Part shown: positions 996-55,848 of the stretch, in pieces
Position numbering within the stretch: position 1 is the stretch's first letter
Layout of the letters: the number at the start of each line of letters is the position of its first letter
Origin: Clostridiales bacterium
Lineage (GTDB): Bacteria; Patescibacteriota; Saccharimonadia; Saccharimonadales; Saccharimonadaceae
Length of the DNA stretch: 64,000 nt
Assembly (NCBI GenBank): GCA_963619335.1
Contig: CAVEVP010000002.1
Coordinates: 30,003 to 94,002 of the forward strand
Direction: 5' to 3'
Notes under the pieces: model-generated
Databases searched by the model: none
What the model saw: only the letters and a program-made list of their open reading frames with translations
Told to the model about the DNA's origin: nothing
Translations under genes and position numbers: made by a program

Positions 996-3078
996 AGCCA
1001 AGAAACGGATTTTGAAGCTGCGCGAGTTGATCAACGATTATCGTTATCATTATCACGTTTTGGACGAATCGATCATGAGCGAGGCGGCGGCGGACTCATT
1101 AAAACATGAATTGACTTTGCTTGAAACGGAGTTTCCGGATTTGATTACGCCGGATTCGCCGACGCAACGCGTGGCGGGGAAGCCGCTGGATAAGTTTGAA
1201 AAAGTGCGACACGAAAAACGGATGATTTCGCTGGCGGATGTGTTTAACGAGGGGGAGATTCGGGATTGGATCGCGCGCAATGAAAAGTTAATTCCGAGCG
1301 GGAAAATCGCGGAGTTTTTTACGGATATTAAAATGGACGGGCTGGCGTGCGCGCTGAAATATCGGGACGGGGTTTTGGTTCAGGCGGTGACGCGCGGAGA
1401 TGGGATGATCGGCGAGGATGTCACGCAAAATGTGAAAACTATTCAGAATGTGCCACTTAAAATATTGGATGCTGAAGGGCGCACACCTTTTTCGGACACG
1501 CTCAAGGCCGCTCGGCCAAGCTTACGGTCCTCAAAAGGTATGCACCCTTCAGACACCGACGATGATATCTCCACAGAAGTCGAAGTCAGAGGCGAGATTG
1601 TGATTTTTAAGGACGATTTTGAAAAGTTGAACGAGCGGCAGCGCGCGAAAGGTGAGGCGGAGTTTGCGAATCCGCGAAATCTCGCGGCGGGATCGATTCG
1701 GCAACTCGATCCGCGGGTGGCGGCGAGCCGGCCGTTGAAATTTATTGCGTATGATTTGGTGACGCCGAATTTAAAAACGCACAAAGAAGCGTACGAATGG
1801 TTGCGGGCGCACCAATTCCAAACTTCGAACGAGGATCGGGTTTTTCAGCGCGGGGAAATTGATGAAATGTTGAAATATATTGCGCAACTCGACGATTATC
1901 GGAAAGGTTTGCCGTTTAATACGGACGGGATGGTGATTAAGATTAACGATCGCGAAGTTTATGATCGGCTGGGGATTGTCGGGAAGACGCCGCGGGCGGC
2001 GGTGGCGTTTAAGTTTCCGGCGGAGGAATCGACGACGGTGGTGCGCGATATTGTGATTTCGATTGGGCGGACGGGCGCGGCGACGCCGGTGGCGATTTTG
2101 GATCCGGTGGTGGTGGCTGGCTCGACGGTGCGGCACGCGTCGCTACATAACGCGGACGAAATTGCGCGACTGGATGTGCGGATTGGCGATACGGTGATTA
2201 TTTATAAGGCGGGAGATATTATTCCGCAGGTGAAGGAAGTGCTTTTAACTTTGCGGTCGGAAAAGTCGGAAAAGTTTGATTATGAAAAAGCCTTGAAGCG
2301 GCAATATCCGGATCTCGAATTTGAGCGGCCGGCGGGGGAGGTGGTGTATCGGGTGAAGGGCGAGAATGCGGACGTGATTTTGAAGCGGGCGGTGGAGTAT
2401 TATGCGTCGAAGCCGGCGTTGAATATTGGGGGGCTGGGCGAGAAAAATGTGGTGGCGCTGGTGGAGGCGGGGCTGGTGAAAACGCTGGCGGATTTGTATC
2501 GGCTGAAAGTTGAGGAAGTGGCGAAGTTGGAACGATTTGGCGAGTTGTCGGCGAAAAATTTGGTGGCGGCGATTTCTAAATCCAAAAATCCGCCGCTAGC
2601 GAAGTTTATTACGGCGCTCGGCATTCGGCATGTGGGGGCGCAAACGGCGACGGCGCTGGCGCGGAAGTTTTTGAGTTTGAAAAAGTTGATGGAGGCGACG
2701 GAGAATGAATTGCTGGCGGTGCCGGATATTGGAAAAATTGTGGCGGAGGCGATTTTGGCGTGGTTTGCGGATGAGGATAATGCGAAATTGCTCGCGGAAA
2801 TGCGAGAACTCGGGGTTTGGCCGACGGCGGAAACTGGCGCGGAGCTAGCGCTTTCTGGGAAATCGTATATTGTGACGGGGACTTTGGCGAGTATGGGGCG
2901 CGAAGAGGCGGAGGATAAATTACGGGCGCTCGGGGCGACGGTGACTTCGACGGTGACGAAAAATACCACGGCGCTGATCGTGGGTGAAAAACCTGGCAAG
3001 TCCAAAACTGACAAGGCGGCAAAGTTGGGGATTCCGACGATTTCGGAAGCGGAGTTTTTGGAGTTAATAAAACAATAA
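982..3078 (+). CDS. ligA: NAD-dependent DNA ligase with an in-frame palindromic insertion
   Basis: KMDG adenylation motif, [16 protein letters not shown]-fold/HhH regions, C-terminal BRCT (VTGTL...VGEKPGKSK); ATG at 982 overlaps upstream gene end. Confidence 0.97.
1465..1559. repeat. Family A palindromic element, copy A1, inside ligA
   Basis: Core TCGGACACGCTCAAGGCCGCTCGGCCAAGCTTACGGTCCTC (1492-1532) flanked by inverted arms CTGAAGGGCGCACACCTTTT / AAAAGGTATGCACCCTTCAG. Confidence 0.9.
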
Positions 3079-3148
3079 TCCGGCGGGAGAGACTTCGTCA
3101 CTCCCTTCTCGTCACCAACTAAAAAAAAGACCGCAGGTCTTTTTCAGT

Positions 3149-3223
3149 TGGTGATCTCGGCGGGAGTCGAACCCGCGTTGACGGGATGAAAACCCGTTGT
3201 ACTAACCGTTATACTACGAGACC
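3149..3223 (-). tRNA. tRNA-Glu(TTC)
   Basis: Reverse complement GGTCTCGTAGTATAACGG...ACGGG-TTTTCAT-CCCGT...GGTTCGACTCCC...ACCA forms a cloverleaf. Confidence 0.93.
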
Positions 3224-3323
3224 GGTTATATATATTATAGCAAAAAAAATAGAAATTGCAAGGAAAAATGGGCGAGCAAGGGGGATTTGTAAAAAACAGG
3301 GAGGGTATGGTATGATAGTAGGT

Positions 3324-4754
3324 ATGAGCAAATTATTTAAAAGAACAAAAATTTTAGCAACGATTGGGCCGGCGACGAATTCGGCAGAAATGGTGGAGGC
3401 GGTGATTATGGCGGGGGTAAATGGCTGCCGACTGAACTGCTCACATGGTTCGAACGAAGAACGCGACCAGCAAATTAAGTGGATTCGGGCGGCGGCAGCG
3501 AAAAAAGGGCGGTCGGTGGCGATTTTGCAGGATTTGCAGGGACCGAAAATTCGGCTGGGGACTTTGAAAGACAATCATTTGGAACTAAAAAAAGGCGACG
3601 AACTTGTGCTGGAAGCCAAGGAATTTGAACATGATGGCGGAATGGTAGTGCCGGTGCAGTATAATTTGGCGGAAAAAGTGAAAGTCGGCGAGCCGTTGTC
3701 GATGTTTGATGGCAAAGTGAAGTCGGAAGTGATTGAAATTGTTTCGGAGACGGCGATTAAGGTAAAAATTTTGAACGACGGTTTTATTATGTCGAAAAAA
3801 GGGTTGAATTTGCCGGATACGGATTTCGGCGGGGATATTTTGACACCGAAAGATTTGGCGGACATTGAATATGGCGCGGGGTGTGATTATGATTATGTGT
3901 CGTTGTCGTTTGTACAGAGCGCGCGGGATATTGAAAAATTGAAACAATTATTGTTATCGCACGGCTCGACGGCGAAAGTGATTGCGAAAATTGAGACTAA
4001 AAAAGCGATTGAGACGGATAAGAATTTGGAAGAAATTGTCGAGGCGGCGGACGGGATTATGGTGGCGCGCGGAGATATGGCGGTCGAGGCGGGGGCGGAA
4101 GTGGTGCCGATTGTGCAACGGAAGTTGATCGCGATGACGCGGGCGCATGCGAAGCTATGCATCGTGGCGACACAGATGTTGTCGTCGATGGTGGAAAGTC
4201 CGGAGCCGACGCGGGCGGAAGTTTCGGATGTGGCGACGGCGGTGGTGCAGGGGGCGGACGTGGTGATGTTGTCGGACGAAACTGCGAACGGAAAATACCC
4301 GCTTGAGACAGTGCAGGAAATGAAAAAAGTGATTTTATACACACAAAATCACTCGCGACTAGCGCCGATTAAACAAAGGCCGGAAGGGGAATCGGTGATT
4401 TATGATGCGATTTCGAGCGCGGCGGCGAGAATGGCAGAGCAAATCGAGGCGGATGTGATTGTGTGCCAGACGGCGACGGGGGCGACGGCGACAGCGATTG
4501 CGGCGCAACGACCGAATTTGCCGATTGTGACGGTGACTTCGAACCAGCGGGTGGCAAATCAAATGGCGCTAGTGTATGCGAATTCAGCGTTTTGCCGGCC
4601 GTATGCGGAAGATTTTGGGTATAATTTGGCGAAAGAACTTAAAGATGCCGGATATTTGCACGCAAAAGAGGGCGAGAAGGATTTGCTTGCGGTGATTGCG
4701 TCGGGGGACAGGAACAAAGTTGGGACGGATACGATTAAGGTGAGGCAAGTTTAG
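3324..4754 (+). CDS. pyk: Pyruvate kinase
   Basis: RTKILATIGPA, DLQGPKIR, IAKIE, MVARGD, ATQML, MLSDETANG motifs. Confidence 0.97.
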   Translation: MSKLFKRTKILATIGPATNSAEMVEAVIMAGVNGCRLNCSHGSNEERDQQIKWIRAAAAKKGRSVAILQDLQGPKIRLGTLKDNHLELKKGDELVLEAKEFEHDGGMVVPVQYNLAEKVKVGEPLSMFDGKVKSEVIEIVSETAIKVKILNDGFIMSKKGLNLPDTDFGGDILTPKDLADIEYGAGCDYDYVSLSFVQSARDIEKLKQLLLSHGSTAKVIAKIETKKAIETDKNLEEIVEAADGIMVARGDMAVEAGAEVVPIVQRKLIAMTRAHAKLCIVATQMLSSMVESPEPTRAEVSDVATAVVQGADVVMLSDETANGKYPLETVQEMKKVILYTQNHSRLAPIKQRPEGESVIYDAISSAAARMAEQIEADVIVCQTATGATATAIAAQRPNLPIVTVTSNQRVANQMALVYANSAFCRPYAEDFGYNLAKELKDAGYLHAKEGEKDLLAVIASGDRNKVGTDTIKVRQV

Positions 4755-55595: not shown

Positions 55596-55615
55596 AAAAT
55601 AATTATAGCACAAAA

Positions 55616-55695
55616 AGCGCGAGACCTGTTTTCTTCGGACACGCTCAAGGGCGCTCGCCCAAGCTTACGGTCCGAAGAAAACAGGTCTTCGCGCT
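55616..55695. repeat. Family A palindromic element, copy A4
   Basis: AGCGCGAGACCTGTTTTCT-TCGGACACGCTCAAGGGCGCTCGCCCAAGCTTACGGTCCGA-AGAAAACAGGTCTTCGCGCT. Confidence 0.9.
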
Positions 55696-55716
55696 CTATA
55701 ATATCATGAGCTCGGC

Positions 55717-55848
55717 GCGCGTGAACTTATCTCTTTCGGACACGCTCAAGGCCGCTCGGCCAAGCTTATGGTCCTCAAGAGATAAGTTCACGCGCCTTAG
55801 CCAAGCTTACGGTCCTCAAGGAATAAGTTCACGCGTCTTAGTCAAGCT
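55717..55848. repeat. Family A palindromic element, copy A5, plus tandem partial duplication of its 3' half
   Basis: GCGCGTGAACTTATCTCTT-core-AAGAGATAAGTTCACGCGC, then GCCAAGCTTACGGTCCTCAAGGAATAAGTTCACGCG. Confidence 0.9.

Follow-up and report, generated by a model that had tools for sequence, protein, structure and literature searches.

A palindromic DNA element with a conserved folded core and partly target-derived arms in Saccharibacteria and Bifidobacterium

A stretch of 64,000 nt from a Saccharibacteria genome (assembly GCA_963619335.1, contig CAVEVP010000002.1, positions 30,003 to 94,002; hereafter the window) contains five copies of a short palindromic element, named family A, which is real and apparently undescribed. 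Each copy consists of a folded core enclosed by two inverted arms. Comparison of filled and empty alleles of ligA, a Trm11-like methyltransferase gene and bipA showed that the insert amounts to about one arm plus the core; the 3' arm is native to the gene, and the 5' arm repeats it in inverted form. The core was found in two genera, and its orientation in Saccharibacteria follows replication, not transcription. Because one hairpin arm is host sequence in three genes, spread by fold-back synthesis at the replication fork is the explanation favored here, with modest confidence. That one arm equals the host target and that the same core occurs in Bifidobacterium are points which go beyond the original prediction, made from the letters of the window alone.

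Filled and empty alleles

Among 30 orthologs of ligA, 20 short alleles have a loop of 9-19 aa before the VRGE motif and four alleles with family A one of 34-35 aa; the remaining six, also longer, contain different cores or inserts of unclear type. In two filled alleles (L410, L412), the 3' arm encodes P-S-E-V-E, the same residues as found in two empty alleles (L424, L429), and the 5' arm is the reverse complement. The gap between filled and empty alleles is ~20 aa (~60 nt), which equals one arm plus the core. For the methyltransferase, the spacing from WL to GDA is 30 aa in L090 versus 12-16 aa in the empty alleles L145, L146, L156, L163 and L166; the conserved F-x-x-x strand that precedes GDA (F-Q-I-S in L090) lies within the 3' arm. 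The same arm signature, each time in the codons of the respective species, was present in about nine methyltransferase orthologs with other core families. For bipA, ~13 nt at the outer end of the right arm match native codons of a 93%-identical empty allele (L071). Hence, the empty orthologous alleles by which the original prediction proposed to define the sites were found for ligA and the methyltransferase. Its description of an element conserved in the middle rather than at the ends was borne out, the insert being about one arm plus core and lacking conserved ends. Target duplications, which it had also envisaged, took another form: no long direct duplication was detected, but an inverted copy of the target and, in Saccharibacteria, a TC repeat of at most 2 nt.

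The reading frame is open in 30/30 ligA and 29/29 matched methyltransferase orthologs, and the in-frame peptides of both proteins in the window are as originally described. In-frame insertion with empty orthologs was also observed for leuS, bipA, tgt, pyrG and others, where the names of genes outside the window are our own assignments, presumed from sequence. The shared 35 nt are read in four different frames. Coding copies (34 of 73) use only four stop-free frames, a circular observation since an open frame was required, and the ortholog sets are the better evidence.

All five predicted cores were recovered at their places in the window, and the core pattern matched none of 100 shuffled versions of this sequence. 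Site-specific inverted arms of ~17-24 bp close each of them. Copy 1 (1472-1552, plus strand) lies in frame in ligA (937-3078) and comprises a left arm (1472-1493), a core of 37 nt (1494-1530), of which the 35 nt at 1495-1529 are invariant, and a right arm (1531-1552). Copy 2 (32325-32408, minus strand; core 32349-32385) is in frame in the methyltransferase gene (31964-33250, minus strand), whose native F-Q-I-S strand is encoded by the arm at 32325-32348; it alone has the lagging-sense minority orientation in the window. Copy 3 (48431-48505, plus strand; core 48450-48486), an A6/T17 variant, is situated between an rRNA adenine dimethylase gene and serS. Copies 4 (55616-55695, plus strand; core 55637-55673) and 5 (55717-55795, plus strand; core 55738-55774) are intergenic, the former 5' of a Mur ligase gene. 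The relative L007 is without copy 4 and is 84 nt shorter there; its ortholog of copy 5 shows changes matched across both arms. The region after copy 5 (55800-55880, plus strand), not included in the original prediction, holds a stutter of two decaying 41-nt tandem units, each composed of the 3' half-core and the right arm, and reaches the 3' end of dus. A 206-aa open reading frame (ORF) at 55706 is likely a by-product of this stutter. Similar repeats on the right side were seen in L102, L103 and L005; the stutter in bipA (L102) has three units and keeps the frame.

Core structure, replication polarity and arm editing

The inner stem of the window copies is either GGCC/GGCC or GGGC/GCCC, confirming the covarying inner hairpin that had been proposed. 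Likewise, the TC/TC mismatch at the junction of core and arm, equivalent to a tandem GA/GA on the opposite strand, is present in four of five copies, as predicted; the junction of copy 4 is fully paired. The proposed 41-nt core needed trimming: a conserved core exists, but its invariant part is 35 nt and the next outer G/C pair varies with the arms. In some genomes, the closing pairs of the core covary too. For 248 de-duplicated copies, mutual information (MI) was 0.93 for the inner-stem pair 14/21, and 0.79 and 0.81 for the pair 6/17, which is complementary in 114/118 and 128/130 copies. Position 17 is a loop base of the inner hairpin, so that pairing of 6 with 17 would be tertiary. The two pairs are found in all four combinations; haplotype linkage could also produce the signal. 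Pair counts were conditioned on the search pattern, hence the constancy of other core positions is an upper bound. The TC...TC junction was found in 71/118 copies, and the bottom strand forms the more stable DNA fold in 74/82 copies. Searching the window with Rfam covariance models returned only tRNAs at gathering score, besides three miRNA-hairpin matches far below the threshold; thus, no Rfam family was matched by the element. Resemblances to group II intron domain V, hammerhead, TIGR and attC were considered and dropped on inspection alone. A long-core variant was rejected as a separate type, being a secondary insertion at a single site in 2/5 genomes. Secondary insertions inside the inner core were observed in Bifidobacterium (L201, L202, L345, L298), namely a mini-hairpin of 18 nt, a segment of ~76 nt and a complete nested copy.

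The GC skew at fourfold sites of the window is +0.70 for genes on the plus and +0.62 for genes on the minus strand; being similar on both gene strands, it marks the leading strand. The polarity result refers to Saccharibacteria copies. The core is on the leading-sense strand in 62 of 77 copies and on the other strand in 6, with 9 ambiguous cases (62/68 classifiable). Of the copies antisense to their gene, 12/13 classifiable ones are still leading-sense. Combined to locus clusters (n = 52), 41 lead, 5 are mixed, 1 lags and 5 are ambiguous.

Cores and arms also change in place, and neither flips nor core swaps were part of the original prediction. The core is inverted between its arms in L138 compared to the window, L089 and L139; flips among metagenome contigs were seen too and may be assembly artefacts. 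Related genomes hold different cores at the same site. Arms are stable among strains of one species. Each copy has its own arms, as had been predicted, but the claim that no arm sequence is shared requires two corrections: Saccharibacteria arms have a common inner profile (identity between copies ~40%), and the arms of two copies within a single leuS gene are nearly identical.

In Bifidobacterium, arms are 26 bp long in 17/29 copies of genome G001 and 19/28 copies of G003. They have 1.2-1.6 mismatches within a copy versus 44% identity between copies (28% if shuffled); the best between-copy arm pair of G001 agrees at 20/26 positions. CC and TC feet at a fixed distance occur in 48/84 copies. For direct target duplications, 48 copies were examined and no offset beat shuffled pairing. 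In 30 copies picked for canonical feet, 97.3% of cells are paired, ~5 cells are G-U, and double-sided changes number 286, against 72 after shuffling and no more than 61 in slid controls. The high pairing, the double-sided changes and the near absence of G-U cells point to DNA copying rather than RNA selection as the probable source of the matched changes. At 11 orthologous sites of G001 and G002 (14 rows minus three doublet or flip rows), arms are 63% alike and 87/116 differences are matched in both arms; the cores differ at 12/385 positions (97% constant), which is an overstatement since only cores within 2 mismatches were taken. Hypermutation of the arms was rejected, as arms are on average not less alike than adjacent intergenic DNA, with exceptions at single loci (L332/L129). 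Copies of G001 are located near gene 3' ends in both directions (10 and 9), between convergent genes (6), between divergent genes (2), and in a coding region (1), with one copy unassigned. Another repeat of Bifidobacterium (L170-L172, L175-L177; G184, G123, G101) is intergenic, consists of several direct and inverted copies of a ~13-nt word and fills a site where G002 has a family-A doublet.

Distribution and neighboring sequences

At least 117 core loci were found in species-representative genomes. Most of the named records are Saccharibacteria (many Ca. Nanosyncoccus), ~20 are Bifidobacterium including cultured type strains, and two are 'Bulleidia' contigs, whose loci group with those of Saccharibacteria and which are likely misbinned. 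The closest relatives of the window are G004 and G033 (methyltransferase 79% and 76%). In the Saccharibacteria genus of G004, the core occurs in 39/80 genomes with 1-12 copies in carriers; in Bifidobacterium (genus of G002), in 48/131 genomes with 1-42 copies. It was absent from 400 sampled genomes of other Patescibacteria and 400 of other Actinomycetota (≤ 3 mismatches). The further dispersed copies expected by the original prediction were therefore found, and in two genera. Letter-identical cores occur in both phyla, and the core likely crossed between them. Saccharibacteria contain both inner-stem types and Bifidobacterium nearly a single one (128/130), which hints at a likely transfer from Saccharibacteria into Bifidobacterium. 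Since copies occupy orthologous sites in several Bifidobacterium species, this transfer would be old.

Exact core patterns had no match in viral contigs, and a plasmid search gave weak partial matches only. Relaxed patterns gave 18 matches in IMG/VR, of which those listed look like chance coding matches. A faecal 'phage' (MT837054) with a full copy reads as Bifidobacterium-like chromosomal DNA. Two microviruses contain an intergenic partial core match, MG945834 (L180:355-383; 27/29, E 0.01) and MK765589 (L182:1427-1450; E 0.5), both with the bottom strand of the core on the coding strand; the motif was not found in other phage records.

The window contains further hairpins. Family B has a GC-rich core with its own site-specific arms and is inserted in frame at 14470-14576 in a pepN-like M1 peptidase gene and at 32430-32544 in the methyltransferase gene. 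It is leading-sense in 7/9 copies, flips too (L138 versus L089) and replaces family A at the same pepN site (L062). A nested hairpin with 28-bp arms and a third kind of core is located at 44663-44835; in L020, the orthologous site is occupied by a copy of family A whose arms stop at the same position. In the region 9560-11650, several short hairpins come after a gene with Flg_new and weak Fib_succ_major domains; this arrangement looks like a putative target of a diversity-generating retroelement (DGR) and its downstream hairpins. Domains of an amino-acid kinase, a carbamoyltransferase, an amino-acid permease and a Porphyromonas-type peptidyl-arginine deiminase are encoded at 16719-22396, a putative cluster resembling an arginine or agmatine deiminase pathway.

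Mechanism, alternatives and meaning

On balance, we favor a DNA hairpin for which template switching on the lagging strand and fold-back synthesis account for both insertion and maintenance. A nascent lagging-strand end in GA would pair with the unpaired TC beside a donor core, the TC/TC junction thus providing 2 nt of priming homology, and would copy the core from the donor. The nascent strand would then fold back on the self-complementary GAC/GTC ends of the core and be extended for ~23 nt on its own strand, giving an inverted copy of the target. This strand would be sealed and the insert fixed in the next round of replication; later template switches may repair, extend and flip the arms. 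This is the simplest way to obtain an insert of one arm plus core together with a 2-nt junction and the observed polarity. Fold-back of the nascent strand with palindrome elongation is documented for yeast Okazaki-processing mutants (PMC5677150), and editing of arms by template switching has been proposed for Nematomorpha (PMC6649704).

Several observations weigh against this account. No fresh insertion was seen against an identical empty allele, the empty alleles coming from other species. Some length differences, namely 84 nt at 55637 and 82-91 nt at L064, agree with two arms plus core. The pepN arms are fed from both flanks, and in three promoter copies the native promoter boxes lie in the 5' arm; therefore, arms also change after insertion. 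The twin copies in leuS show that some arms travel with the core, and one subfamily has common inner arms across unrelated loci. Because native outer arms coexist with these counter-examples, arms are regarded as mosaics, of which the inner part can travel with the core and the outer part is copied from the site. The polarity could reflect loss or flipping of copies with the more stable bottom strand (74/82) on the lagging template. Random copying of targets predicts neither the fixed 26 bp of Bifidobacterium arms nor their conserved feet and family likeness; the 95-nt hairpin of this genus looks like an old unit that once moved intact. Plain template switching also leaves unexplained why cores are constant in place and arms are not. 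As the fold-back account does not cover core constancy and fixed geometry, these imply a protein or selection reading the tip.

Alternatively, a non-autonomous element comprising short arms and core may have been moved whole by a single-strand transposase of the HUH/Y1 type or another enzyme now lost, and the target-derived arm ends would have arisen later by palindrome elongation and deletion. This possibility, which we consider doubtful, is in agreement with arms common to different loci, with the fixed 26-bp arms and CC|TC feet in Bifidobacterium, with a structure-selected covariation in the core and with a lagging-template polarity like that of IS200/IS605 (PMC6006769). It conflicts with the size of the ligA and methyltransferase inserts, which measure one arm plus core, and with the results of the enzyme searches, for which Y1, IS110, reverse transcriptase (RT) and GIY-YIG families were covered genome-wide. 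Y1/RAYT was absent from five high-copy genomes. PF01797 was present in 7/120 genomes of the Saccharibacteria genus, all seven with zero family-A copies, and in 10/131 Bifidobacterium genomes with no association to the element. No core was found near the Y1 genes at 23 loci, and IS110 was detected in 0/5 carriers. Transposase and RT domains were absent from 48 window ORFs scanned (covering 1-59,600), in line with the stated lack of a transposase, and no transposase was found among the 176 ORFs that flank the element in Bifidobacterium, the first 115 of which include many shadow frames. GIY-YIG occurs about once per genome in long frames, presumably UvrC, and in one 283-aa protein without an adjoining core. 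In sum, no Y1/RAYT transposase or RT, whose co-occurrence the original prediction had suggested, was found linked to the element. The C-terminal domain of SbcD, the one domain searched for this protein, was absent from 5/5 carriers. Loss of SbcCD goes along with tolerance of long palindromes, and the absence is in line with such tolerance.

It is improbable that host selection or molecular drive now maintains the hairpins as DNA signals, such as sites for fork priming, protein binding or uptake, mobility being ancient. The constant core between variable arms at orthologous Bifidobacterium sites, the complementarity of positions 6/17 and the 27/29 match in the microvirus would be expected for such signals. 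However, the in-place comparison overstates constancy, the microvirus motif is in no other phage record and relaxed IMG/VR matches looked like chance; moreover, presence is patchy (0-12 and 0-42 copies per genome) and different core families replace each other at one site.

Even less credit is given to a resident DGR RT that would take a transcript as the source of the core and copy it onto a nicked target via the 2-nt TC homology, followed by fold-back synthesis. RTs were detected in 4/5 carrier genomes, two in each of three Saccharibacteria carriers, and the TC...TC junction fits primer microhomology. Against this, G001 with 29 copies has no RT match, polarity follows replication, and the Saccharibacteria RTs resemble ordinary DGR RTs, with template/variable repeat pairs at three of five loci (four with enough flank). 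Each of these RT loci (L398-L402 in G004, G005 and G033, genomes of 0.7-0.8 Mb with two DGR-type RTs each) has an unannotated ORF of 283-332 aa before the RT in place of a short accessory gene.

That family A is a structured RNA, be it a ribozyme, intron or mRNA element, which acts in transcripts or is spliced out, as the original prediction had considered, is very improbable despite the strong folding with covariation and the location of Bifidobacterium copies near gene 3' ends, since copies occur in both orientations in genes and 3' regions, orientation tracks replication, G-U pairs are nearly absent from the arms, filled ligA and methyltransferase alleles keep their frames and Rfam gave no match.

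Compared to known systems, family A is closest in outcome to Rickettsia palindromic elements (RPEs; PMC10969869, PMC3733652), which likewise comprise several families of palindromes, occur in frame within unrelated housekeeping genes of a bacterium that is reduced and host-dependent, and have no known dedicated transposase. In-frame housekeeping insertion with empty orthologs is common to both, but RPEs are ~150 bp long and encode one conserved peptide, whereas 35 nt are shared here and read in four frames. Furthermore, RPEs are said to lose repeat identity (PMC6649704), whereas the site-specific, partly target-derived arms of family A stay matched. REP/REPIN sequences with RAYT and GTAG- or CGTC-tagged repeats (PMC3733652, PMC6006769) are also short dispersed hairpins near gene 3' ends, and convergent doublets in Bifidobacterium and occasional in-frame copies are further similarities. 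Family A differs by its conserved middle and variable stem instead of conserved ends, and by the lack of a linked Y1 gene. A GTAG/CGTC foot is absent (Bifidobacterium feet are GNCC and TC, and most Saccharibacteria copies have no conserved foot), and no RAYT gene flanked by the repeat was found among the Y1 genes of carriers and the 23 loci. With IS200/IS605 (PMC6006769), family A shares an orientation tied to the lagging-strand template, here in 62/68 Saccharibacteria copies, and a structure-selected single-strand motif; TnpA and a pair of hairpinned ends are lacking, and insertion leaves an inverted target copy. Coding palindromes of Nematomorpha (PMC6649704) and yeast rad27 fold-backs (PMC5677150) also have perfect arms kept by conversion, which grow into coding flanks and double as codons, but they are without a shared mobile core, whereas one core seeds hundreds of sites in two phyla here. 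Neither terminal inverted repeats common to copies (arm identity ~40% in Saccharibacteria, 44% in G001) nor direct target-site duplications, as in miniature transposable elements with inverted repeats (MITEs), were observed. Thus, the element is RPE-like in outcome and IS200/IS605-like in polarity, and fails the defining tests of MITE, REP and RPE. No description of it was found in the literature, where supplements (repeat tables) and most subscription papers were outside the search; pieces of the core occurred in three unrelated papers only, and Bifidobacterium, Actinobacteria and TM7 are not named in the excerpt of PMC3733652.

The miniature elements known from bacteria are recognized by their ends and leave direct duplications or none. 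Tentatively, family A may represent a new class of mobile DNA defined by its folded tip, which is inserted at the lagging strand, leaves the target copied in inverted form, possibly needs host replication enzymes alone and records by its sharing the contact between epibiont and host. If true, this would be a different way to move DNA, and a route by which RPE-like inserts enter essential proteins. Unlike the uncultured Saccharibacteria, Bifidobacterium type strains carrying the core can be cultured, so insertion, flipping, arm repair and protein binding are open to bench work. No link between these gut epibionts and Bifidobacterium as host appeared among the papers listed; the distribution over two genera is a lead to the host of gut Saccharibacteria epibionts.

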